NCBI GenBank assembly: GCA_965215375.1 | Contig: CBDCDO010000001.1 | Location: forward strand, 893,567 to 957,566 | Reading direction: 5' to 3' | From: Dehalococcoidia bacterium | Lineage (GTDB): Bacteria; Chloroflexota; Dehalococcoidia; Bin125 | DNA length: 64,000 nt | Shown: piece by piece, positions 8,571-46,648 of the stretch | Position numbering within the stretch: position 1 is the stretch's first letter | Layout of the letters: the number at the start of each line of letters is the position of its first letter | Made by a program: the position numbers and the translations under genes | The notes under the pieces: generated by a model | Seen by the model: the letters and a program-made list of their open reading frames with translations, nothing else | Databases searched by the model: none | What the model was told of the DNA's origin: nothing

Positions 8571-9748
8571 CGATCGATCTCCCCCACCACGATGTCAATC
8601 GATCCCAATGTCACGATCGCGTCAGCTAGGGTACCGCCAATCGACATGTCCTTCAGCGCCGTGAGATTAATCAACGAGGGCGGTCGGCAGTGGAACCGGT
8701 ACGGCGCCGGACCACCGTCCGACACGAGGTAGAAACCCAGCTCGCCGCGCGGAGATTCCACCCGCGCATACGACTCGCCCGGCTCAGGCCGAGCATGCAA
8801 CGGCACATCAGCGAGATATGGTCCGTCCGGCAGCGTGTCCACGACCTGCCGCAGAATCTTGAGGCTCTCTTTGACCTCAGCCATGCGGACCAGGAAGCGG
8901 TCAAAGCAGTCACCCTTCTCGCCGACCGGGACGTCAAATTCGTAGTCCTCATAGCCGCAGTAGGGATTGGCCTTGCGAAGGTCCCAGGGCACACCGGTCG
9001 AACGGAGCACCGGCCCGGAGAGCGAGGAGTTAACCGCCATCTCTGGCGAGATCACGCCGATCCCGCGAGCCCGCGCGTGCAGAATCTCGTTCTCGAGCAG
9101 CAACGCCTCGTAATTGGCGATGTTCTCTGGCATGTCCGCCAAGAACTGCTCCAAGGTCGGCAGGAGCTCATCAGGCAGATCGAACGCGACCCCGCCGATC
9201 CGCATGTAGTTCGTCGTCAGCCGCGCGCCACAGGTCATCTCGAACATGTCGAGCACCCGCTCGCGGTCACGGAACATATGGAAGAGCGGCGTATGCCACG
9301 CGCCGCAGTCGTTGATGAACGTGCCATTCGCCATCGCGTGCGAGGCCACGCGCTGCAGCTCCGCGAACATCACGCGGATCGCGTTCGCGCGAGGCGGGAC
9401 TTCGACGCCCAGCAATTCCTCGGCCGCCAGACAGTACGCGAGATTGTTCGACATCGCCGCCAGATAGTCGATCCGGTCGGTGAACGGAATGTTCTGCGTG
9501 TACGTGCGCTCTTCCGCCAGCTTCTCCATCGACCGATGCAGATAGCCGATCCGCATCTCCGCATCCTGCACGATCTCCCCATCGAGCGTCACCTTGAGTC
9601 GGAAGACGCCATGCGTCGACGGATGCTGCGGACCCAGGTTGACGACAACTGGCTCAGAGCCCTCGCCCGAGGCGAGCGCCTCGATCGTGCCCTGCAACGC
9701 CAAGCGCGAGTCGTCCATCATCGGGCGAGTGTCGTCTGCGGTGGTCAC
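8567..9748 (-). CDS. nuoD: NADH-quinone oxidoreductase subunit D (49 kDa)
   Basis: NuoD pattern (NLGPQHPSTHGVFRL...RIGYLHRSMEKLAE...ESPRGELGFYLVSDG). Confidence 0.9.
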   Translation of the reverse strand: MTTADDTRPMMDDSRLALQGTIEALASGEGSEPVVVNLGPQHPSTHGVFRLKVTLDGEIVQDAEMRIGYLHRSMEKLAEERTYTQNIPFTDRIDYLAAMSNNLAYCLAAEELLGVEVPPRANAIRVMFAELQRVASHAMANGTFINDCGAWHTPLFHMFRDRERVLDMFEMTCGARLTTNYMRIGGVAFDLPDELLPTLEQFLADMPENIANYEALLLENEILHARARGIGVISPEMAVNSSLSGPVLRSTGVPWDLRKANPYCGYEDYEFDVPVGEKGDCFDRFLVRMAEVKESLKILRQVVDTLPDGPYLADVPLHARPEPGESYARVESPRGELGFYLVSDGGPAPYRFHCRPPSLINLTALKDMSIGGTLADAIVTLGSIDIVVGEIDR

Positions 9749-10380
9749 GCTGAACCCTCGCTCTCATCAGCCACGACCAACTCACTGTCCGTCGCAGGAA
9801 AGTTGGGATGGACGGGTCGCTGCGGCACGCTACCCGGCACCGGCCAGGCGTTCTCTTCGCTCTCGTGTGGGAATCCAGGCAACCCCGCCCGCACTTGGCC
9901 AGGCATTTGCAGGAAATCCTTGCGCAACGGATACCCCGGGAAGCCCTCCCAAAGGAACATCCGACGCAAGTCAGGGTGACCCTCGAAGCGAATCCCAAAC
10001 AGATCAAACACCTCGCGCTCCTGCAGATGCGCGCCGTAATACAGCCCCGTCAACGACGGCAGCGACGGATCTTCGCGATCGGTCAGCCGCGCCTTGACCT
10101 GAATGATGTGGTTGTGGTCCAGCGATTGCAGGTGATAGACCACTTCGAAGTAGCGCTCCTGGTCGACAGCGGTCAAGTTGCAGAGGAACACCAGATCGCT
10201 CTCGTCCGAGTCACGCAGCGCGCGCATCGACTCGACCAGTCGCTCTGGCTCGAGGAAGAGCACGCCGTCGTCGACACACGCCGATTCACTCGCGCACGCG
10301 TTGGCGATCTCCATCGCTGCGGTCGGGTCGTATGCGGTCGTCACGTTAGCGCCACTCCAGCGCCTGTCGGCGCCATTCAT
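9745..10380 (-). CDS. nuoC: NADH-quinone oxidoreductase subunit C (30 kDa)
   Basis: NuoC pattern (DLFGIRFEGHPDLRRMFLWEGFPGYPLRKDF). The likely true start is an internal Met, because the ORF overlaps nuoA by 35 nt. There is no nuoB between A and C. Confidence 0.85.
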   Translation of the reverse strand: MNGADRRWSGANVTTAYDPTAAMEIANACASESACVDDGVLFLEPERLVESMRALRDSDESDLVFLCNLTAVDQERYFEVVYHLQSLDHNHIIQVKARLTDREDPSLPSLTGLYYGAHLQEREVFDLFGIRFEGHPDLRRMFLWEGFPGYPLRKDFLQMPGQVRAGLPGFPHESEENAWPVPGSVPQRPVHPNFPATDSELVVADESEGSA

Positions 10381-29875: not shown

Positions 29876-30415
29876 CTACTCCTCACACCGCGCGACATGG
29901 TCAATCGCTGCAATTCCCAAAATCCGGACATCCTCCGACACCGGCGCCGAGACACCAGCAAACTCCATCGACACATTCTCCGACAGCTCACGCCGAGTCA
30001 CCCAACGCCACGACTCACCGGGCGCCGGCGGCCGACCTTCTGCGCTCGGACGGGAAAAATAGATCATATCGATGTGATGATGAGCGTCCTCGCCGCCGAA
30101 CGAGCGAATCGGCTCAACCATGATCGTCGCCGGCGCGACCAACTGCGGTGGATCACGATAATCAAACCGCTCCGAAGTCGGCAAAATCTCAACCACGATG
30201 CCCGTTTCCTCCAACGCCTCACGGATCGCCGCCTGCGGCGGATCCTCATTAGGCTCAATATGACCGCCCGGAGGAAGCCACAGACCGACTTTACGATGCC
30301 AATGCAACAGTGTCGCACCATCCGTTGCGACAAATGTCGATACTGTGAAGTGTCGGATATCGTCCACGGGGTTTACCGTATCGCACATGGAACTCATCTC
30401 TGCCCATAACGGCAT
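29876..30415 (-). CDS. NUDIX hydrolase
   Basis: Nudix box GGHIEPNEDPPQAAIREALEETG. The track ORF extends to 30463; an internal Met start avoids overlap with the divergent gene. Confidence 0.65.
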   Translation of the reverse strand: MPLWAEMSSMCDTVNPVDDIRHFTVSTFVATDGATLLHWHRKVGLWLPPGGHIEPNEDPPQAAIREALEETGIVVEILPTSERFDYRDPPQLVAPATIMVEPIRSFGGEDAHHHIDMIYFSRPSAEGRPPAPGESWRWVTRRELSENVSMEFAGVSAPVSEDVRILGIAAIDHVARCEE

Positions 30416-34236: not shown

Positions 34237-35295
34237 TCAGAGCCCCACCGTCACCGGACGCGTCATCCCGCCGAATGTCGGCATCCAGCACGAATGCTTG
34301 CCCGGCCCTCCAGCGACGATGATGTGAATCTCCTCAGGCCGATCCGAGATCGGCAGCCACTCATCCGAGCTATGCGTCGGCAACACGCCGCCCGCCATAC
34401 GGATGTTCACCGACTCCAGAAATTCCTCGCTCAGCTTGCTCGCCGGATACCGAGCGTTCTCCCACAGATACTCCTGCACCGACTCTCGCGTCCAACCCTC
34501 CGACGCGACCGTCTCTGCGTGTTCTGGACCAAACGCCAGCACAGGTTCGCCCTTGCCCAGAATGTTGTTCGATCCTGCCTGACCCATCGCCCCAGCGACC
34601 GTCTGCAGGATCCCCGCCGCCGTGTTACTGCCGTGATCCTGAATGTTGTGCGGACCCTCGCACGCCCAGGTCGTCACACAGCTGTCCTCTGCATTGAGCC
34701 CGCGCGTCGTCTGGAACGGCGGCCACGGCGACGCATCCTCACGCTCGGTTGCGCAAAATGCGAACTTGGCCGGCGTGCCCTGCGTCGCGCGATCGCCCCG
34801 ACCAGGTGTCGCTCCGGCGACATTCAGTTGCACCAGTCGCACCGCTCGCCCGATCGTCGCGTTGGACGGAAATGTCGGCCCGAAACAGCCCGATCCGCCG
34901 TGAATGCCAGCCGCTCGCGCCGCCGGACCCGACGCCAGGACAAACACCGCGCACGGATGCGTCGTCGCATTGATTCCGTCGAGATTGAACGGCGGCTGCG
35001 CAATCGCTTCGACCGCCGCCAGCACGATCGGGAACTGCTGCGGCCGACAACCCGCCATCACCGCGTTAATCGCGACCGCCTGCACCGTCGCCTCGCCTTG
35101 ACGAGGCGACAACACACCCAACACCTCCATCGGATCGCGACCCGCAGCCTCGACCATCGCCGCAACGCGCTCCGCCGTCGGCGGAATCAGCGGCAGGCCG
35201 TCGGACCACCCACGACGTTGGCACTCCTGCGAGAACTCGAACGCGTCGGCCGGCAGCGAGAATCGCTCGGCCTCTCGACCTCGAGCCGCCGTCAC
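34237..35295 (-). CDS. conserved hypothetical protein (352 aa), translationally coupled to the upstream selenoprotein gene
   Basis: GTG start overlaps the TGA stop of the upstream gene (GTGA at 35292-35295). Balanced composition; contains GWSDGLPLIPPT...AINAVMAGCRPQQFPIVLAAVEAIA. No family recognised. Confidence 0.55.
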   Translation of the reverse strand: MTAARGREAERFSLPADAFEFSQECQRRGWSDGLPLIPPTAERVAAMVEAAGRDPMEVLGVLSPRQGEATVQAVAINAVMAGCRPQQFPIVLAAVEAIAQPPFNLDGINATTHPCAVFVLASGPAARAAGIHGGSGCFGPTFPSNATIGRAVRLVQLNVAGATPGRGDRATQGTPAKFAFCATEREDASPWPPFQTTRGLNAEDSCVTTWACEGPHNIQDHGSNTAAGILQTVAGAMGQAGSNNILGKGEPVLAFGPEHAETVASEGWTRESVQEYLWENARYPASKLSEEFLESVNIRMAGGVLPTHSSDEWLPISDRPEEIHIIVAGGPGKHSCWMPTFGGMTRPVTVGL

Positions 35296-35837
35296 GATGT
35301 CCCCGCCTCACCAAGCAGCGCCGCCTCAAGACGATCAACTACACCATCATCGACCCGTCCGCGCACGCGCTCAGGTCGCAGCCCACCAAGCGGATGCGGC
35401 ACAATCAAGCGGTCCAACTCGGGCAACCCGCGCTGCTCCGCTTCGAGTTGCAGCAAATCCGTAAACGCCGACGTCCCAACCGTCACCGTCGGAATTCCCA
35501 TCTCTTCAAACAGCACTGAGGCGTGGACACTCCACGTCGTGCAGCTTCCTCAATCGCAGCTCCCAATGAGCAGGAAATCGGCCCCGTTCCGCAGCGCGTC
35601 AATCGTCGAGTCTGACGGCGGCCCACCAACCGGCTTGCTGCCAACGACCACGTCGCCCAACCGATGCCGTTCGCCCAACCGCTCGACCATCGTTTCCATC
35701 AGCAAACGGGCATTCGCCTTCCGATTCTCCAGAATCCCAGGTCGAAGCCCGTCCAACGACGTCGGTCGAGGCGCCGCCGTCGCCTCATGAATCGCCACAT
35801 GAGCCAACGGACTCAAAATCTCAATCGTCTCCGGCAT
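35292..35837 (-). CDS. UGSC-type selenoprotein with in-frame TGA (Sec) at 35550-35552
   Basis: Track ORFs 35550..35885 and 35292..35516 are in the same frame (offset 258 nt) and separated only by TGA. Read-through gives ...ADFLLIGSCD-U-GSCTTWSVHASVLFEEMGIPTV... A GC-rich hairpin sits 11 nt after the UGA. Best RBS is GGAGG-6 nt-ATG at 35837. Confidence 0.6.
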
Positions 35838-35872
35838 CGCAATCCTCCAGTCACCTGCCATCTCCAAACAGC

Positions 35873-37537
35873 CTAAGGCTTCCAATCCTCCGGCTCGACG
35901 ACGATGATCTCGATGTACCCCAACACACGACGTTCCTCCAGGGTGGCGCCCGGGTCACCTTGGGTACCGGCTGGGCATCGTGTCGTCACCTCAACTAGCA
36001 CCCGTCCAAGCTGGGTAGGAGTGCCCCGCAACAGCATCTCGGCTCCGATGATGCCGCCATCATCGTCGTATGTCGTGATACTCGTAGGCGCAATCAACCC
36101 ATTCCAAGCTTCAACGAGTTGATCTTCATTCGACAGATTACCACTGAAGTAGTGACCCTGTTGCTGGTAAGATTCGTCCGGGCTCGGCCGCCCTTGGATC
36201 CAACAAAAGGCATCCGAAAACTCTTGTGTTGATGTCAACACTACCCGATCGTACCAGTGGTACGGACGACCAAGTTCCACGAACACCGTACGGATCAGGT
36301 CATCCGGCCCCACAGTTGTCCTGTCTGACGGATCCGACGGTAAATTGGCAAACAGTTGCTTTTGTATCTGGACTGTGCGCTCCGAAGGTGGTTCGAACGA
36401 TATTGGATTCCCGGCATAGACGAAGCGAAAGTTGGCATTCCGACGCGCTTCAGCGGACCGAAAGTGAGGAATGTAGCGTTCCCAAACCGCCAACATCGTC
36501 GCGACAAACTCCGGACCGAAAAACTCATCAGGATCGGTGATAGCCCGTACGTAGTCTACCAGTAAATCAGCAAATGTGTCTGATTGATCAGCTTCGATAA
36601 CTCGACCCTCTACCGGAATCATCGCTCGCGACTCAACGCCATTGATGAACACTGGAACGTCCGATGCTCGATCTCCAAACAGGTCAACGTTGATCAAGTC
36701 GAACAACCGATTGATCTGATACCAATACGTCCCCCAATCAGGGCGCCAAGTCGATTCCACATCGACGACGTAGTCGGGCAGGAAGTAGTCATTGACATGC
36801 CTGGCCCAGTCCACAGCGTCGCCAAAGTGGTGACCATCAACGCCAGTTAGAGGCCCTGAAGTAATGGACAGCCCCAGCCGAGGTTTGTAGTATATTACCG
36901 ACGAGTTCCAAATGCCGTGTCCTGTGGTTTCTAGGAATAGCACGGTACGAGGTGTATCATCACCTCTATTTCCCGTGCCGTCGTAGCCAGTGTGATACCA
37001 GCCTTGTTCACCATGGATGATCACTTTTCGGTCAAGAGCGTAGATGATAAAATCAGGATCAGTGACCCGCAGGTCTGTTGCGAAAAGCTCTGCTCTTGAT
37101 AGGCACCCTGGTGTTCCAGATGAAATACCAAGCGCATCGAGCTCAATCTGAAACTCCGCAGAGCAGTCGGCGAGGAAGCTCATGCGATCTTGATACACGT
37201 CGATGGTGAGGAATGACCACTGATTTGGTCGACCTTGCCAGAGCAGTGTCACCTCTCCAAGATCGAGCAATGCACCATGCTCGAAACGTTGACCTGGGAT
37301 GGCGAAGCCTTCACCGCGCTCCGCGGCGTCGGCGAAACAGTCCGTAATCGCATCTCGTGATGCGCTGCCAGGGATTTCTTCGGCATACTTCAGCCATTGT
37401 GTTCCGTTATAGCACCATGCTGGGAGGTCGGCGCGATTTGCCTCAACTGTGGCGTTCCAAGCGAAGAGGCTTGCGCTGATCGCGAACGCGAGGATGGCGA
37501 ATCCAACCCAAGGTCGATGTGCGCGCCTACGTCTCAT
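35873..37537 (-). CDS. secreted / membrane-anchored hypothetical protein (~555 aa), lower GC than its neighbours
   Basis: N-terminal MRRRRAHRPWVGFAILAFAISASLFAWNA signal/anchor, many Trp/Tyr, no recognised catalytic motif. Local GC is ~52% versus ~65% in the flanks. The track ORF extends to 37579. Confidence 0.55.
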   Translation of the reverse strand: MRRRRAHRPWVGFAILAFAISASLFAWNATVEANRADLPAWCYNGTQWLKYAEEIPGSASRDAITDCFADAAERGEGFAIPGQRFEHGALLDLGEVTLLWQGRPNQWSFLTIDVYQDRMSFLADCSAEFQIELDALGISSGTPGCLSRAELFATDLRVTDPDFIIYALDRKVIIHGEQGWYHTGYDGTGNRGDDTPRTVLFLETTGHGIWNSSVIYYKPRLGLSITSGPLTGVDGHHFGDAVDWARHVNDYFLPDYVVDVESTWRPDWGTYWYQINRLFDLINVDLFGDRASDVPVFINGVESRAMIPVEGRVIEADQSDTFADLLVDYVRAITDPDEFFGPEFVATMLAVWERYIPHFRSAEARRNANFRFVYAGNPISFEPPSERTVQIQKQLFANLPSDPSDRTTVGPDDLIRTVFVELGRPYHWYDRVVLTSTQEFSDAFCWIQGRPSPDESYQQQGHYFSGNLSNEDQLVEAWNGLIAPTSITTYDDDGGIIGAEMLLRGTPTQLGRVLVEVTTRCPAGTQGDPGATLEERRVLGYIEIIVVEPEDWKP

Positions 37538-37562
37538 ATAGTGCACAAGTGGACAAGCATCC

Positions 37563-37814
37563 TTACTCCAGATACCCATAGACGAGCTCCCGTAACTCGT
37601 CCATGTCCGGGAACCGACCCATCGCCGCCTTGCTAAACACGAGTTCGCCGTTCACCGACCACTCGAACAGGCCCTTCGTGTCCGGCACCAACCGCACGTC
37701 GCTGACGAGATGCTGGATGTCCGCCATCAGCTCGCCAAGCATCCACGACGTGCGCGGCCAGTACCCACAGTCGGCGCAGTAGACCACCTCTATCGCGATT
37801 TGCGCTTCTGACAT
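37563..37814 (-). CDS. Rdx-family (SelW/SelT/SelH-like) thioredoxin-fold protein, Cys form (CxxC)
   Basis: IAIEVVYCADCGYWPRTSWMLGELM matches the I-x-YC-x-x-C-x-W-x-R-x-x-W pattern of the Rdx family, where selenoprotein homologues carry CxxU. 83 aa. Confidence 0.65.
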   Translation of the reverse strand: MSEAQIAIEVVYCADCGYWPRTSWMLGELMADIQHLVSDVRLVPDTKGLFEWSVNGELVFSKAAMGRFPDMDELRELVYGYLE

Positions 37815-37823
37815 CGTGCGCCC

Positions 37824-38834
37824 CTATCCCCCCAGATACTGTTCCAGCCGCCTGCCGACCTCCGACGGCGTGCCCGACGGTAGTGGAATCATCTGCAAGT
37901 CAGCACCAGCGTCCGACCGAGACTGCAACTGCTCCGAGACCGTTTCAATCGGCCCGATCACCTGAATCTCCCGAACCATGTGCTCCGAGAACGCCATTAG
38001 CGCGGCCTCAGAGTCTCGGTCGGCCCAGGCTGTGCGCGATTCCTTGATCTCAGACTCAAAGCCCGACCGCGAAAGCATCTGCCAGTAGAACGAACCCATC
38101 CGGTTCGTGTAATGAAACAGTGGCTGTCGAGCATTGCGCCACGTCTGCTCGTCATCTCCTTCGCCGGTCACGTACACATTCGTGAACGGCGCCACCGTGA
38201 CTGAGTCCTCGGGCCGACCAGCATCGCGCGACGCCCCCGCAAGCTGTCGCTTCAGCGACTCAAACGACCGCTTCGGCCAGTGAATCGGATAGATCCCGTC
38301 CGCGATCTCACCAGTCTGCTGAATTGACCGAGGCGTAATCGCCGCAATCCAGACCGGAATGTCTTCCCGCACCGGCTCATATCCAAGCAGACGGAAACCC
38401 CGCTGGAGCGTGTAAATCTCGCCCTCATACATCAGCCGTTGTCCACTGAGGAGCATCTTGATGATCTCCGTGTACTCACGGATGCGTCGCAGCGGTCGAT
38501 CGAAACCGACCCCGTGGAATCCCTCAATTACCAAGTTCCCCGATGATCCCAGCCCGCAGACCATGCGCCCGCCCGAGATCGTCTCGAGCGTTGCAAACTC
38601 CTGCGCGATCACCGCCGGTGTCCGCGAGAACGTGTTGAGAATCCCTGTCCCAATCTGGATCTTCTCCGTGTTCGCAGCAATCACCGTCAGCCACGGCAAC
38701 ACCGAGTGCCCCCAGGCCTCGCCCGTCGACACCATCTCGTAACCGAGGTCCTCAGCGATTTTCACCTTCTCCAAGGTGTCTCGCCAGTTCGTGTCGAATC
38801 CTGCCAAAATGCCCAGTCGCATTGTCGTGCTCAT
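37824..38834 (-). CDS. LLM-class F420/flavin-dependent oxidoreductase
   Basis: RLGILAGFDTNWRDTLEKVKIAEDLGYEMVSTGEAWGHSVLPWLTV...GLGSSG TIM-barrel LLM pattern. Confidence 0.8.
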   Translation of the reverse strand: MSTTMRLGILAGFDTNWRDTLEKVKIAEDLGYEMVSTGEAWGHSVLPWLTVIAANTEKIQIGTGILNTFSRTPAVIAQEFATLETISGGRMVCGLGSSGNLVIEGFHGVGFDRPLRRIREYTEIIKMLLSGQRLMYEGEIYTLQRGFRLLGYEPVREDIPVWIAAITPRSIQQTGEIADGIYPIHWPKRSFESLKRQLAGASRDAGRPEDSVTVAPFTNVYVTGEGDDEQTWRNARQPLFHYTNRMGSFYWQMLSRSGFESEIKESRTAWADRDSEAALMAFSEHMVREIQVIGPIETVSEQLQSRSDAGADLQMIPLPSGTPSEVGRRLEQYLGG

Positions 38835-38844
38835 CGGTTCGCTC

Positions 38845-39306
38845 CTATTCGATTTCGACGATCATTTCGATTTCCACAGCCATGCCCACCGGCAACGACT
38901 GCATGCCGACCGCGGAACGCGCGTGACGGCCACTCTCGCCAAACAGCTCGACCAACAAGTCGGACGCGCCATTGGCGACGCCAGGGTGGTTACCAAACTC
39001 CGGCGTGCAGTTGACCATGCAGAGCAACTTCACAATCCGCGAGACGCGGTCCAGCGAGCCGATCTCGGCCCGCAGCGAGCCCAGCAATTGCACCATCACC
39101 GCCCGAGCAGCATCGTAGCCCGCGTCGACATCCATGTCGGCGCCCAGCTTGCCTCGAATCAACTCGCCGTCCTTGAACGGACCGTGTCCCGAGAGAAACA
39201 CGAGATTACCCGTCCGCACCGCAGGCACATAGTTGGCCAGCGGCGGATTCGTCGAAAGATCGAGCCCCATCTCCAACGCCTTCGCGTCGGCGTTATGTGC
39301 AGACAT
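38845..39306 (-). CDS. RidA/YjgF/RutC family protein
   Basis: VRTGNLVFLSGHGP...NCTPEFGNHPGVANGASDLLVELFGESGRHARSAVGMQSLPVGMAVEIEMIVE. Confidence 0.8.
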   Translation of the reverse strand: MSAHNADAKALEMGLDLSTNPPLANYVPAVRTGNLVFLSGHGPFKDGELIRGKLGADMDVDAGYDAARAVMVQLLGSLRAEIGSLDRVSRIVKLLCMVNCTPEFGNHPGVANGASDLLVELFGESGRHARSAVGMQSLPVGMAVEIEMIVEIE

Positions 39307-39367
39307 CGAGAGCTCCTTCCGCTTCGTGCGCTCGTCGCGAACCCGTTCCGTCCACGAGTTCCGAGAG

Positions 39368-39763
39368 TCAGCCTACCGCAGACCGATACGCCCGCAGTTC
39401 AATCTCATTGCCATCCGGATCGGCGATGTACAACCCATCGGCCATCCCGCGAGCACCGAACAGCTCGAAATCAGGATCACGCACAATCCTAAACCGTCCC
39501 GACGTGCGAACCTCATCCATGCTCTCCGCGCTCACAACCATGCAGAAGTGGTCAAGATTCCGACGCACCTGGTCCACCTCACCCTCGATCAGATCGATGA
39601 TCGTCCCCTCAGAAATCCGCACCGACGGAAACGGACACTCCTCAGCCTGCCATTCTTCGACCCGCACGGGCTCAAGTCCCAACTCGTTCGCATACCAGTC
39701 CAACGACCGTTTCACATCGGAAACCCGCAGGACGATATGGTCCATCGCCACAACTCGAACCAT
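39368..39763 (-). CDS. VOC family (glyoxalase/bleomycin-resistance/dioxygenase fold) protein
   Basis: MDHIVLRVSDVKRSLDWYANELGLEP...YIADPDGNEIEL. Confidence 0.7.
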   Translation of the reverse strand: MVRVVAMDHIVLRVSDVKRSLDWYANELGLEPVRVEEWQAEECPFPSVRISEGTIIDLIEGEVDQVRRNLDHFCMVVSAESMDEVRTSGRFRIVRDPDFELFGARGMADGLYIADPDGNEIELRAYRSAVG

Positions 39764-39849
39764 CGTGCATGTCCCTTCAGTCCGACTCGCGGCCACCCGC
39801 GGAAGTGCGGTAAACCGTCCGACACAACGAGCATAACATCAAACACTCG

Positions 39850-39882: not shown

Positions 39883-41271
39883 ATGAGCGTCGAAATTCGT
39901 ATGGCCCGCGGACTCCGAGTCCACCTCGAAGTGCCCGAGCGCGCCCATGTCGACGGCGCGACCGCCCGCGAGGCGATCGACGCCCTGATCGCGCTCCATC
40001 CCGGGCTCCGCCAATTCGTCCTCGACGACGCCCGCCGACTGCGCCAGCACGTCAATCTCTACATCAACGACGAGCTCATCCGCGATCGCCAGGAGCTCTC
40101 CGACCCCGTCTCAGACGGCGACACAATCTATATCCTCCCCGCCGTCTCTGGTGGCGCCGACACCACTCGCAACCCTGAGGAGAACAGCATGAGCGAATCA
40201 CAGTCAGAAGTCGGCCTCCTGGTCAGCACCCGCAAAGGCCTACTCATCGGACGCAGCTCCAACGGACGCCAACAGTGGGAATGGTCCGACCTCCAGCGCT
40301 CCGGCTGGATCGTCGACTACACAACGTTGGACGCCAGAACCAACAAGATCTGGTGCTCCGCGAGCCACTGGCAGTGGGGACCGCGACTGCACTACTCGAC
40401 CGATTTCGGCGGAACATGGGTCGAGGCTGGCACGCCCGCATTCGACGACGGCGAACGCTCGGTCGAGGCGATCTGGATGATCGAGCCCGGCGGCCACGAG
40501 GGTCGACTGTTCGCCGGGATCATGCCAGCCGCGCTGTTCCGCTCCGACGACGACGGCGCCTCGTGGCGCGAGGTCACCTCGCTGACCGAGCATCCGTACA
40601 GCAAGTACTGGGAGCCCGGCGCCGCCGGCTTGGTCATCCATCACATCTCCGTCGATCCGCAAGACGCTGACCGAATCGTCGTCGGAGGCTCCGCCACCGG
40701 AGTCTTCGTCTCCTACGACGGCGGCGATACCTGGATGGCACGCAATCGTGGCATCCGCTCCGATCACATGCCGCCCGACCTGCAGGAGCTCGCGCCGTGC
40801 GTGCACTCGCTCTTCGCTCACCCGTCGGAGCCCGGCCGACTTTGGCAACAGAATCACTTCGGACAGTACCGCTCCGACGACGATGGCGAGTCCTGGATCC
40901 AAGTCGGCGAGAACCTGCCTGGCCTGTTCGGATTTCCAACCGCCATCGACCCACGCAATCCCGATGCCTGCTACTTCGTCCCGCACGACTCCGACCAAGC
41001 GCGTATGCCATACAACGGCTCTCTCGCCGTGTTCCGCACTCGCGACGCCGGCCAAACATGGGATCGTCTCGATAACGGACTGCCACAGGTCGACTTCTTC
41101 CACACCGTCTATCGACACGCCCTCGGACAAGACGCCTGTGATCCGCTCGGCCTCTACTTCGGTTCCAGCGGAGGCGAACTCTACGGCTCCATCGACGGCG
41201 GAGACAGCTGGGCCCTCCTCCGAGAGCACCTCGCCCCAATCACTGCCGTCCGAGCCTGGCAAATGGAGTAA
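39883..41271 (+). CDS. MoaD/ThiS-like beta-grasp sulfur-carrier-type domain (ends VSGG at residues 90-93) fused in frame to a BNR/Asp-box beta-propeller protein
   Basis: N-terminus MSVEIRMARGLRVHLEV...HVNLYINDELI...SDGDTIYILPAVSGG. The ORF then continues without a stop through a linker into STDFGGTW / SDDDGASW / SYDGGDTW / SDDDGESW / TRDAGQTW / SIDGGDSW Asp-box repeats. An internal GAGGAG-6 nt-ATG (MSESQ, ~40189) could also start the propeller alone. Confidence 0.7.
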   Translation: MSVEIRMARGLRVHLEVPERAHVDGATAREAIDALIALHPGLRQFVLDDARRLRQHVNLYINDELIRDRQELSDPVSDGDTIYILPAVSGGADTTRNPEENSMSESQSEVGLLVSTRKGLLIGRSSNGRQQWEWSDLQRSGWIVDYTTLDARTNKIWCSASHWQWGPRLHYSTDFGGTWVEAGTPAFDDGERSVEAIWMIEPGGHEGRLFAGIMPAALFRSDDDGASWREVTSLTEHPYSKYWEPGAAGLVIHHISVDPQDADRIVVGGSATGVFVSYDGGDTWMARNRGIRSDHMPPDLQELAPCVHSLFAHPSEPGRLWQQNHFGQYRSDDDGESWIQVGENLPGLFGFPTAIDPRNPDACYFVPHDSDQARMPYNGSLAVFRTRDAGQTWDRLDNGLPQVDFFHTVYRHALGQDACDPLGLYFGSSGGELYGSIDGGDSWALLREHLAPITAVRAWQME

Positions 41272-44033: not shown

Positions 44034-46648
44034 TCCTCCTGTGTTCGAGCGGCTACTGTCCGACCGTGCAGATGCCTCGGCAGCAGGTGCTCTGGATAGG
44101 CAGTGCCGACCAGGCCCTTCGCCACCAGCTCCGCCAGCTCAGCCTCCGAATAGCCGAGCAGGTCGCGATAGATCTCCTCATTATGTTCACCCAGCTTGGC
44201 CGGCGGCGTCCGCAGCTGGTTCGGCGTCCGACCCATCGAGAAACTCAGTCCCGGATATCGATGCGTGCCGACATCGTCCATCGTCAGCGGCTCAAAGAAC
44301 CCGACCTCTCGCAAATGCCGATCCGACAATGCGTCAAACGGATCATTGAGCGGCGCCGCGCAAATCCCGGCCGCCTGCAACTTGTGGAACAGATCCTCCT
44401 TGTTCCACACCCGCGTCTCTTGAGCAATCAACTCGTCAAGCACGACCGCATTCTGCCTCCGAGACTCCGCGTGCGAGAACCGCGTGTCGAGCGGCGCATG
44501 CGCTAACTCCGACTGCACCGATGCCTCACCAGGACCCGCCGCTAGCGCGTCGCACAACGTCACAAACTCAGCGTCAGAGCTGATATCGATTGCAATCCAC
44601 TGGTCCTCACCCCGACACGGATACACACCATACGGTGCGTGATACTTGTGACTGTTCCCCTGCGACGGCGGATTCACACCATTCATCGAGTACTCAAACA
44701 AGTACTCAGCGAGCGTCGGGATGAACCCCTCGTTCAGTGGCATTTCGATCAGCTGACCCTCACCCGTCCGCTCGCGATGACGCAATGCCATCATCACCGC
44801 TACCGCTCCTTGCACTCCCGACATACCATCGCTCGCGAGCGTCTCGCCAATCCCTTCAGGACTGCGATCAGGATATCCACGCAAATGCGTATGGCCGACC
44901 ATCGCCTCGACATGCAAGCCAAACGCCCGATACGACGAGTACGGACCTTCAAGCCCAAACGCCGGCATCCGTAACATAATCAATCGCGGATTCACCGCTC
45001 GTAACTCATCCCAACCGATGCCCGCCTTGTCGATCGTCGTCGGAACATTGTTCTCGACCAGGACATCGCACTGTTCAATCAAGCGGAAGAACGCCGCTTT
45101 CCCCTCCGGCGACATGATGTCGCAAGTCATCGATCGCTTATTCCGCGCATGAGAGTTAAACGACGCAGACCGATTCCACGGATCATCACCCAGCTCCGAG
45201 TCGGGATACTGCGGCTGCACTCCAATCGCCGCGCCGCGATCCATCGTCTCCTTGCTCTGAGCGTTCTCAACCCCCCGTGTATACGGCTGAATCCGATTGA
45301 CCGGCTCCACATTGACCACATCAGCGCCCCACTCGCCCAAGAGCTGCGCCACATGCGGACCCGCCCAGACCACCGTCACCGCCGCGACTCGAAGGCCCTC
45401 AAGTGGCAAATGCAGCGCACTCATCGGACCGTCAGGCAGCGGATGACGCAGATCCTCTATCGGATCAGGCGGCGTGAAGTCAAGCACGACGCGTGAATGC
45501 TCACCCAGTCGAGGCGAACGCTTCGGTCGCGGCGGCTGCGACTCACTCATTCGGAACGGGAACCCCGGATACGGCAGAGCCGTCCCATGCCAATGCGCAA
45601 TCTGATGCCACCAGTCGCGAGCCGCGAGCTGCGGATCATCCAGCACATCAGCGACTGTCATCACGGCGCCCGCAAGCAACCGGTTCGACTGAGCCTCCGC
45701 CACCGCGTCGATTTTGTTCATCCCCGACAGGTACGACTCCACGGCCTCATCGACGCGAGCGCCAAACCCCGATCCCGGCCGCGGACCTCGCAGAAAATCC
45801 TCATCCTCGAGCAGATCCTCCCGACCGATCCAGCGCATCATCCGCGGCATCCGCGATCCGGTGCCGACAATGTTCACAAACCCATCGGCGCAGGGATACA
45901 TCCCAAATCCAACCTGCCGACGTCGCGGCTGCGCCCGCCCCGGCGCAATCCCGCTGTACTCAGCCGCGACGAGCTGAATCGTCCGTCGATCCCGACACGC
46001 CACTTGGCATCGATAGATCGAGATGTCAATCCAATCCCCAGCCTGCGCATCGCTCTCTACCCGCTTCAGCGCCAGCAGGATCGCAAACGCCGCCGTCGCT
46101 CCCGCGTGATAGCTCGCATAGTGCCCAGCCAACTTGATCGGCTCACGATCCGCCGCGCCCGTCGCATGCAACGGACCACCGATCGCCTGCATCGTCAACT
46201 CCGAGCCGCGGTAATCCCGATACGGCCCGCTCTGTCCATACGCCGTAATCGAGCACATGATCAGCTTGGCATTGATCGAATGAAGCACACTCCAGCCCCA
46301 GCCTGCCTCCTGCGCCTCGCCCGGCCTCAGATCCTCAATCACTACATCCACCATCTGAGCCAGCCGACGCACCGTCGCCGCGCCATCGTCCGTCTGCGGG
46401 TCGAGCACGATCGACTGCTTGTTCGTGTTCAGGTGCATGAACAGCCCTGACGCCTCAGGATTCTGCTCTCCACCAGGAAACGGACCAAACGTTCGCGACG
46501 GGTCGCCCCCCCGAGGTTCCGCCTTGATCACCCGCGCGCCATAGTCGGCGAGCAGCTTCGTCGCATAGGGACCCGCGACCACGGTGGTCAAGTCCAGAAC
46601 CGTGATGCCTTCCAGCGGACCAGCCATGTGCGCTCCCGTTGCCGTCAA
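44030..46648 (-). CDS. tandem-fused family III CoA-transferase (two CaiB/BaiF-like modules, 872 aa)
   Basis: Both halves start with the family signature: GITVLDLTTVVAGPYATKLLADYGARVIKAEP, and again LRVAAVTVVWAGPHVAQLLGEWGADVVNVEP. Confidence 0.8.
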   Translation of the reverse strand: MTATGAHMAGPLEGITVLDLTTVVAGPYATKLLADYGARVIKAEPRGGDPSRTFGPFPGGEQNPEASGLFMHLNTNKQSIVLDPQTDDGAATVRRLAQMVDVVIEDLRPGEAQEAGWGWSVLHSINAKLIMCSITAYGQSGPYRDYRGSELTMQAIGGPLHATGAADREPIKLAGHYASYHAGATAAFAILLALKRVESDAQAGDWIDISIYRCQVACRDRRTIQLVAAEYSGIAPGRAQPRRRQVGFGMYPCADGFVNIVGTGSRMPRMMRWIGREDLLEDEDFLRGPRPGSGFGARVDEAVESYLSGMNKIDAVAEAQSNRLLAGAVMTVADVLDDPQLAARDWWHQIAHWHGTALPYPGFPFRMSESQPPRPKRSPRLGEHSRVVLDFTPPDPIEDLRHPLPDGPMSALHLPLEGLRVAAVTVVWAGPHVAQLLGEWGADVVNVEPVNRIQPYTRGVENAQSKETMDRGAAIGVQPQYPDSELGDDPWNRSASFNSHARNKRSMTCDIMSPEGKAAFFRLIEQCDVLVENNVPTTIDKAGIGWDELRAVNPRLIMLRMPAFGLEGPYSSYRAFGLHVEAMVGHTHLRGYPDRSPEGIGETLASDGMSGVQGAVAVMMALRHRERTGEGQLIEMPLNEGFIPTLAEYLFEYSMNGVNPPSQGNSHKYHAPYGVYPCRGEDQWIAIDISSDAEFVTLCDALAAGPGEASVQSELAHAPLDTRFSHAESRRQNAVVLDELIAQETRVWNKEDLFHKLQAAGICAAPLNDPFDALSDRHLREVGFFEPLTMDDVGTHRYPGLSFSMGRTPNQLRTPPAKLGEHNEEIYRDLLGYSEAELAELVAKGLVGTAYPEHLLPRHLHGRTVAARTQEE

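Follow-up and report, generated by a model that had tools for sequence, protein, structure and literature searches.

An Rdx-UGSC-P352 gene module in a Dehalococcoidia genome and its probable role as a thiol/selenol-dependent reductase

The stretch of DNA analysed here (64,000 nt, hereafter the window) belongs to the genome of a Dehalococcoidia bacterium (assembly GCA_965215375.1, contig CBDCDO010000001.1, positions 893,567 to 957,566) and carries, between positions 34237 and 39796, seven minus-strand genes which an earlier note had regarded as a single redox operon. Three of them constitute a conserved module and encode a small redox protein of the Rdx family, a selenoprotein of the UGSC family and a 352-aa protein, designated here P352, whose family has no name. 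In the window this module sits in a lineage-specific block of VOC, RidA and LLM genes, and UGSC and P352 probably form a two-subunit thiol/selenol-dependent reductase that is fed in this organism by Rdx. The seven-gene arrangement is a lineage-specific layout around the conserved core. The comparisons reported below support the proposal of the earlier note that Rdx, UGSC and P352 are linked in a thiol/selenol redox module, but not its extension to one conserved pathway of seven genes, since VOC, RidA and LLM are confined to a close clade in which they are sometimes parted by inserts, and since the remaining gene, coding for a 568-aa protein, is variable.

The conserved core and its selenocysteine

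All seven open reading frames (ORFs) were confirmed, coordinates included, as co-directional and close-packed, and the assignment of five products to the VOC, RidA, LLM, Rdx and UGSC families agrees in each case with Pfam or NCBIfam models. Within the core, the Rdx gene (37563..37814, minus strand) encodes a SelW/SelT/SelH-like protein with a CADC motif that matches PF10262 (64.1 bits, cut-off 22.6) and TIGR02174 (57.6 bits, cut-off 34.2). The UGSC gene (35292..35837, minus strand) encodes 181 aa including one selenocysteine (Sec), with a GGAGG sequence located 6 nt 5' of its ATG at 35837, and its stop codon overlaps the start of the P352 gene (34237..35295, minus strand) in the sequence GTGA at positions 35295-35292.

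The seven proteins of the window were mapped onto 82 related Dehalococcoidia loci having a P352 identity of 62-94%, in which all ORFs were clustered; loci with at least 78% identity are referred to as the close clade, and 35 loci with 62-76% as distant. A UGSC match occurs upstream of P352 and on the same strand in 82/82 loci, and is adjacent to it in all but one (81/82), the exception, L006, being at a contig end. Wherever no insert intervenes, the Rdx gene precedes UGSC by 4-70 nt, including in 30 of the 35 distant loci, Tepidiformaceae among them; it also neighbours UGSC throughout the close clade, and no further gene family occupies a fixed position in these 35. Across the 82 loci the order Rdx-UGSC-P352 is thus kept, whereas that of VOC, RidA, LLM and the 568-aa gene is not, and the neighbourhood comparison bears out the earlier note for these three genes and not for the other four. 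Of the seven genes, the conserved module is Rdx-UGSC-P352 alone. Metagenomic contexts of more distant UGSC homologues again display either this order or a fusion. The GTGA overlap, which had been taken as a sign of coupling, reflects a real partnership, as the two genes are adjacent in the related loci, are fused in many lineages and are adjacent or fused in 12/13 annotated plasmid loci (see below). The coupling itself is not universal, because an insert of 0.6-0.9 kb separates the UGSC stop from the P352 start in eight close relatives (L001, positions 9352-10016; L002, L021, L037, L039-L041 and L043). Three of the 82 loci have a Sec-form Rdx, in which a TGA replaces the second Cys (CVS*, CVP* and CAT*, giving CxxU).

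The Sec codon of UGSC is an in-frame TGA (35550..35552, minus strand; D-U-G-S-C) embedded in the frame IGSCD-TGA-GSCTTWSV, and it is TGA in 83/83 homologous loci, i.e. the 82 relatives and the window; Cys-form homologues have DCGSC at this position. A hairpin (35513..35542, minus strand) lies 14 nt 3' of the UGA, with an upper stem CGUGGA/UCCACG closed by a GUG loop (35536-35522) above a lower stem GCAC/GUGC, and is recovered in both the minimum free energy (MFE) and the centroid folds. The folding energy of the 71-nt stretch is not significant (z = 0.14), so that the case for a selenocysteine insertion sequence (SECIS) rests on conservation. Codons +4 to +10 after the UGA (ACG ACG/GCG TGG AGT GTC CAC GCC) show essentially zero synonymous variation among 71 distinct sequences, in which the Gly, Ser and Pro codons flanking the hairpin vary freely (three to five codons each), and the substitutions found in the stem are all C to U with a G·U pair retained. 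Judged from these sequences, the hairpin together with its codon conservation is the signature of a bacterial SECIS element. The window showed no gene for tRNA-Sec and no selA, selB or selD.

UGSC matches PF24696 with 140.1 bits (E=1e-40; gathering score 25). Its score against NF041046, with U written as C, is 106.3 bits and lies under the equivalog cut-off of 125; the equivalog name is therefore not earned by this protein. A search of the PDB with the UGSC profile returned non-significant FtsZ matches and nothing else. In the model of a natural UGSC-P352 fusion described below, the UGSC domain is predicted to be flavodoxin/Rossmann-like with the U/C residue at the N-terminus of a helix, and not thioredoxin-like as suggested in the literature ('likely Trx-like'). 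As a side observation, the UGSC of Arthrobacter (271 aa, L097 7009-7824) is extended at the C-terminus by a stretch whose NifU-like match is borderline (27.2 bits, cut-off 27).

The P352 family, its fusions and its genomic contexts

P352 has more than 7,585 homologues which, where named at all, are called 'hypothetical protein'; the nearest of these are from metagenome-assembled genomes of Dehalococcoidia, and many record names suggest sponge-derived bins. An exhaustive HMMER search (E up to 1e-3) defined a family of 5,296 representatives at 50% identity that spans bacteria and archaea. Neither Pfam (E up to 10) nor NCBIfam yielded any match to P352, and no PDB neighbour emerged from sequence search, profile search or Foldseek (E up to 1e-3; TM ~0.2); the possibility raised in the earlier note that it might belong to an unrelated, well-characterised family is not borne out. 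Weak Foldseek matches to class I fumarate hydratase and to 'Toblerone-fold' cyclic amide hydrolases (TM ~0.2) were left unused.

Fusions were counted in the best 150 of the 5,296 representatives. Among these, 17 contain the whole of UGSC fused to P352, with CGSC-type motifs, and 21 carry at the N-terminus of P352 only the post-UGA half of UGSC, as is expected of Sec-form fusions because gene callers start after the in-frame UGA. In four, P352 precedes UGSC, with the sequence cut at the UGA, and two are tandem P352-P352 proteins. One protein, P0144, consists of P352 fused to a thioredoxin-disulfide reductase (TIGR01292, 331 bits, motif CAVC).

The structure predicted for P352 alone has a predicted local distance difference test score (pLDDT) of 88 and a predicted template modelling score (pTM) of 0.89. 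For the natural fusion P0148, AlphaFold2 run with 55 sequences gave values of 93 and 0.93, respectively, with the linker 187-198 as the sole disordered part, and the UGSC and P352 domains are predicted to pack confidently against each other. Over 145 P352 domains, D32, G33, P35, P39, N145, G149, R150, E184 and W191 are at least 95% conserved, and C83 (93%), C181 (90%), K177, R153, D168 and H259 are 85-95% conserved. In some fusions (P0098 at L089 8001-9698, P0160, P0182, P0211, P0217 and P0280), Leu, Ile, Ser or Gly occupies the Sec/Cys position of UGSC (e.g. TANLGSC, DIGAA) and P352 retains C83 and C181. In these subfamilies UGSC may have a structural role, or another thiol may be used; the idea that loss of the UGSC Cys goes along with loss of the P352 cysteines was dropped, as the latter persist. 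In haloarchaea, two P352 paralogues, 40% identical to P352 of the window, flank UGSC (L104 3319-5981 and L099 4279-6978), and the tandem metagenomic fusions P0158 and P0230 have partly degenerate motifs; both situations suggest hetero-oligomeric P352 assemblies.

In cultured organisms, tblastn against PLSDB located P352 homologues on 24 plasmids or megaplasmids of haloarchaea, Paracoccus, Roseovarius, Neorhizobium, Variovorax, Acidovorax, Arthrobacter, Embleya, Vibrio and Sporomusa, annotated as 'hypothetical protein' wherever a feature underlies the match. The annotated neighbourhoods were cross-checked with Pfam, and it is in 12 of 13 such loci that UGSC is adjacent or fused to P352. A thioredoxin reductase (TrxR)-type gene lies in the fetched flanks of 7/16 plasmid loci, as well as 4.6-6 kb downstream in six Dehalococcoidia loci. 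The closest association with the thioredoxin (Trx) system is that of Arthrobacter, with the order trxB-trxA-P352-UGSC, while Roseovarius has LysR-P352-UGSC-trxB with genes for a CaiB-type coenzyme A (CoA)-transferase and a TRAP transporter alongside. In Variovorax SRS16 the order is trxB-TTT binding protein-SDR-P352-UGSC, in V. boronicumulans TrxR-like flavoprotein-TTT binding protein-fusion, and in Haloterrigena UGSC-P352-TrxR-like flavoprotein. Natrinema shows UGSC-P352-DUF6282-NAD(P)-binding protein-MFS and Halorientalis DUF6282-LLM-CoA transferase-CoA ester lyase-P352'-UGSC-P352-TAXI TRAP; Haladaptatus follows the Halorientalis order, but with a single P352 and with UGSC not annotated. Genes for the amidohydrolase-like DUF6282 occur near P352 in 30/107 loci, in both domains. 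Paracoccus ferrooxidans has a Sec-split UGSC-P352 pair on pFER4, with selB, the gene for the Sec-specific elongation factor, located about 4 kb from this Sec-form pair (L098 10428-12203).

Some of these neighbourhoods bear on the nature of the substrate. In Vibrio europaeus and Sporomusa termitida the fusion stands beside genes for aconitase X and DUF126 (L096 3001-4710 and L095 1869-3574, respectively), a pair which we take to be, in bacteria, cis-3-hydroxy-L-proline dehydratase. In Variovorax boronicumulans the fusion is adjoined by ornithine cyclodeaminase- and DHDPS-family genes (L103 1-1278). Taken together, these neighbours point to imino acids as possible substrates. The role in detoxification put forward in the earlier note found no specific support, the contexts elsewhere having a catabolic look, with transporters, among them those for organic acids, LysR/IclR regulators and CoA-transferases.

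A putative reductase and the alternatives

In the reading that we favour, UGSC and P352 would be the two subunits of one enzyme, which in many lineages is a single polypeptide. P352, which has invariant Asp, Arg, Lys and Glu and two near-invariant cysteines, would be the large part and probably the one that binds the substrate and is catalytic; UGSC would be a flavodoxin-like domain offering Sec-x-x-Cys at the N-terminus of a helix. The selenol would attack either the substrate or a disulfide or adduct on P352, and the neighbouring Cys would then resolve the product to a selenenyl-sulfide, which would be re-reduced by a thioredoxin-fold CxxC protein, Rdx in the window and TrxA in Arthrobacter. 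The electrons of this carrier would come in the end from NAD(P)H, by way of a thioredoxin reductase. Interchange of Sec and Cys is seen at the UGSC motif as well as at the CxxC/CxxU motif of Rdx. Judging by the contexts, the substrate would be an imported organic or imino acid, with hints towards either imino/amino acids (aconitase X, ornithine cyclodeaminase, DHDPS, AzlCD) or CoA-activated organic acids. The logic of such an enzyme would parallel that of the glycine and D-proline reductases, likewise fed by thioredoxin.

Several points weigh against this scheme. No TrxR or TrxA gene was found in the 64-kb window, so that the role given to Rdx is drawn from its position and fold only. In 5/19 full-length fusion rows UGSC has no Cys at the Sec position, with C83 and C181 retained in P352, so that the family as a whole does not require a Sec/Cys relay. 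The proximity of CoA-transferase and LLM genes is weak evidence, because their paralogues are very abundant in these genomes. The similarity of UGSC to GrdB/PrdB is a marginal lead towards distant homology that spans 60 columns and not a proof of it, and P352 has no similarity to PrdA/GrdE (PF09338) and no Pfam match at E up to 10. Finally, reviews list UGSC as uncharacterised, and no function is given for it in the searchable literature up to a 2026 review.

The likeness to glycine/sarcosine/betaine reductase protein B (GrdB+GrdE) and to D-proline reductase (PrdB+PrdA) deserves closer description. In these enzymes as in UGSC, UxxC comes directly after a hydrophobic strand and is followed by a helix and by a strand reading E..G-I-P-T-V; the gene next to that of the selenoprotein encodes a larger subunit, and a small CxxC/CxxU carrier is present; trxB and trxA belong to the cluster in some UGSC-P352 hosts, the window having Rdx only. 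PrdB/GrdB-like selenoprotein reads (GOS supplement) match PF07355 up to the Sec residue, just before which this model ends, and UGSC has no match to PF07355 at E up to 10. When the UGSC profile was compared with these reads by hhalign, a marginal match was obtained (probability 60.7%, E=8.2e-5, 60 columns, 32% identity) in which Sec falls on Sec, Cys on Cys and the E..GIPTV strands are aligned. The differences are that UGSC, at about 180 aa, is without the N-terminal region described by PF07355, that GrdC/GrdD-like genes do not accompany UGSC-P352, whose hosts are mainly aerobic or halophilic heterotrophs, and that P352 has neither detectable similarity to PrdA/GrdE nor evidence of a pyruvoyl group. 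A sharper version of the reductase reading would make UGSC-P352 a functional analogue of protein B, with P352 as a pyruvoyl subunit of PrdA/GrdE type that cleaves itself and binds an amino or imino acid, the Sec of UGSC as the residue responsible for reductive C-N bond cleavage, and Rdx in the part of GrdA or Trx. The UxxC placed after a beta-strand, the weak hhalign match to the Sec segment of GrdB/PrdB, the resemblance of the Rdx CxxC/CxxU to the CxxU of GrdA, and the presence of trxB-trxA just ahead of the pair in Arthrobacter, a layout shared with grd operons, all speak for it, as do the proline/hydroxyproline-metabolism neighbours in three unrelated hosts (Vibrio, Sporomusa and V. boronicumulans) and the amino-acid-type AzlCD transporter genes that adjoin the Vibrio fusion. 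We nevertheless consider this version unlikely, given that P352 matches neither PF09338 nor any other Pfam model, that neither a fold match in the PDB nor signs of a cleavage site are found for it, that the hhalign probability is only 61%, that the hosts are mostly aerobes and haloarchaea and not Stickland fermenters, and that other loci, with CoA-transferase and CoA ester lyase, point to CoA-ester chemistry.

Two further explanations were considered. The module might be a general antioxidant or repair system, i.e. a peroxidase or a protein-disulfide or sulfoxide reductase, with P352 as target or scaffold and not as a catabolic enzyme. Rdx/SelW-like proteins are generally viewed as antioxidant, and in Halalkalicoccus the gene after P352 codes for a universal stress protein. 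Moreover, most prokaryotic UxxC/CxxU selenoproteins are thiol oxidoreductases (PMC2398784, PMC13188914). Such a system is nonetheless rather improbable, for the contexts are dominated by transporters (TRAP, TTT, MFS, AzlCD), LysR/IclR regulators, CoA-transferases and the amidohydrolase-like DUF6282, often on catabolic megaplasmids, the invariant Asp/Arg/Lys/Glu set of P352 is typical of small-molecule active sites, and paralogous copies of P352 exist in one locus. The other explanation is that of a single thiol/selenol redox or detoxification pathway encoded by all seven genes as one operon, with VOC, RidA, LLM and the 568-aa protein each accounting for a step. In its favour are the co-directional genes, which overlap or are 9-61 nt apart and between which terminators are not detected, the synteny VOC-RidA-LLM-Rdx-UGSC-P352 in about 45 close relatives, the recurrence of LLM-class and DUF6282 genes in haloarchaeal UGSC-P352 clusters and a RidA gene near the V. 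boronicumulans fusion. The absence of VOC, RidA and LLM from the 35 distant loci and, as orthologues, from the plasmid loci, the reverse-strand gene that splits RidA from LLM in L002, and a 568-aa gene of deviant GC content that most relatives lack or have replaced, and for which hardly any homologues exist, make such a pathway very unlikely.

Setting these against the favoured reading of a two-subunit reductase fed by Rdx, other known systems resemble it in part. ArsC, the methionine sulfoxide reductases (Msr) and PAPS reductase also combine a catalytic Cys or Sec with a resolving Cys and are regenerated by Trx/TrxR, but they have no relation to it in sequence or fold, and in the present system two separate proteins or domains carry the redox pair and the putative substrate site. 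The Rdx of the window shares an N-terminal CxxC (CxxU in three related loci) with the SelW/SelT/SelH family (PF10262); unlike bacterial SelW-like proteins, which have no assigned partner, its gene is fixed upstream of UGSC-P352 in Dehalococcoidia, where it holds the place of trxA in Arthrobacter. With the UGSC family (PF24696/NF041046) the protein of the window shares the motif, a TGA-encoded Sec with downstream hairpin and a partner domain that is sometimes fused. UGSC was already known as a selenoprotein family of unknown function, and its fusion with a domain termed 'Unknown_1' was reported by Zhang & Gladyshev 2008 (PMC2398784), so that the combination, which the earlier note did not recognise as a described pathway, is not wholly undescribed. 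'Unknown_1' may be P352; the N-terminal motifs of P352 were not found in the part of the PMC2398784 dataset that was searched. The partner had never been named, modelled or sized, and more than 5,000 clusters with TrxR, Trx or Rdx neighbours are described here. What is new is the size and anatomy of the partner family, a UGSC fold corrected on the basis of a predicted model, the conserved partnership with Rdx, the TrxR/Trx neighbourhoods and the TrxR fusion, a possible kinship with GrdB/PrdB and a list of tractable hosts.

UGSC is among the commonest uncharacterised selenoproteins of aquatic microbes, for which the module gives a testable lead: the selenoprotein would be half of a larger enzyme, its obligate partner coming from a very large unnamed family that lacks a solved structural relative, and its electrons would likely be supplied by thioredoxin reductase with thioredoxin or Rdx. 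Bacterial SelW-like (Rdx) proteins thereby gain a first concrete partner, and hosts that can be cultured and manipulated genetically (Arthrobacter, Roseovarius, Variovorax, Paracoccus and haloarchaea) possess Cys-form operons. As a broader and tentative proposition, P352-UGSC could represent an unrecognised class of thioredoxin/Rdx-dependent (seleno)reductase, with a fold that has no solved relative, widespread in aerobic marine, sponge-associated, soil and halophilic bacteria and archaea, which would reduce or reductively cleave an imported organic or imino acid as an aerobic counterpart of the Stickland selenoenzymes; if true, this would explain the abundance of UGSC in aquatic metagenomes. 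For annotation, many artefactual database fragments of 100 aa and of 410-450 aa need correcting, because the UGA leads gene callers to split the genes or cut them short.

Clade-specific neighbours and other features of the window

Upstream of the core, the VOC gene (39368..39796, minus strand; PF00903, E=1.6e-9) encodes a VOC/glyoxalase-fold protein whose true start is probably a downstream ATG, since its relatives measure 127-129 aa. It is followed by genes for a RidA/YjgF-family protein (38845..39306, minus strand; PF14588 and PF01042) and for an LLM-class oxidoreductase (37824..38834, minus strand; PF00296, 230 bits, E=5e-68), probably F420-dependent, whose best NCBIfam matches are all to F420-type subfamilies and below cut-off (TIGR04024, 208 vs 345; TIGR03559, 202 vs 335). 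The gaps are of 61 nt between VOC and RidA, 10 nt between RidA and LLM and 9 nt between LLM and Rdx, and scans for promoter and terminator consensus between the genes gave counts no higher than in shuffled sequence, with no convincing site. All three genes accompany the module in the close clade only. Even there, L002 has an oppositely oriented SBP_bac_5 gene between RidA and LLM, and the same insertion is suggested in L037 and L043 because they have the same RidA-LLM spacing; the position of VOC relative to RidA shifts in L014, L031, L039-L041 and L044, and VOC is absent from L045 and L046. LLM was rejected as a conserved cross-domain partner in the sense of orthology, the LLM of the haloarchaeal cluster being 24% identical over 127 residues.

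The 568-aa ORF (35873..37579, minus strand), lying between Rdx and UGSC, overlaps Rdx by 17 nt, or leaves a gap of 25 nt if its second ATG is the start, and ends 35 nt before the UGSC ATG. Its product, which the earlier note had called secreted, is predicted to be membrane-anchored or secreted from a basic and hydrophobic segment read at the N-terminus of its sequence. The GC content of the gene is 0.52-0.55 against 0.60-0.67 in its surroundings, and the protein has 2 homologous clusters among 5.8 billion proteins and no Pfam or NCBIfam match. PADLOC and PHROGs returned nothing for it or for P352, so that a defence or phage origin of the insert is unsupported. The interval separating Rdx from UGSC was compared in 46 close relatives: 19 have no insert there, 16 have about 1.7 kb (4.3 kb in L046) with a homologue of 26-33% identity, one has a homologue of 88% identity, and 10 have unrelated inserts measuring 0.9-2.4 kb. 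Varying from strain to strain, the 568-aa gene is an insert in a hot spot of the Rdx-UGSC spacer and stands outside the conserved module. The slot protein is 26-33% identical between genomes (L004-L047) whose flanking genes are about 90% identical, as would result from fast diversification or repeated replacement of a surface protein inside a redox gene cluster.

No DUF6282 gene was found in the window. About 4 kb upstream of the cluster, two tandem paralogues of family-III (CaiB/BaiF-type) CoA-transferase are encoded on the minus strand (44108-46615); such genes, which are highly paralogous in these genomes, also lie near UGSC-P352 in haloarchaea, Roseovarius and other Dehalococcoidia. Divergent from VOC, a plus-strand ORF of 462 aa (39883-41271) has a ThiS/MoaD-like domain, ending in SGG, in frame with a BNR/sortilin-like propeller. 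The two parts are separate genes in L001 and L002 (86-103 aa and 356-370 aa), and a single tblastn match covers both in six relatives (L015, L031 and L039-L042). Finally, between positions 30000 and 44000 the GC skew of the plus strand is negative in 27 of 28 windows of 500 nt (down to -0.30) and the AT skew is mostly positive, both regardless of gene strand.

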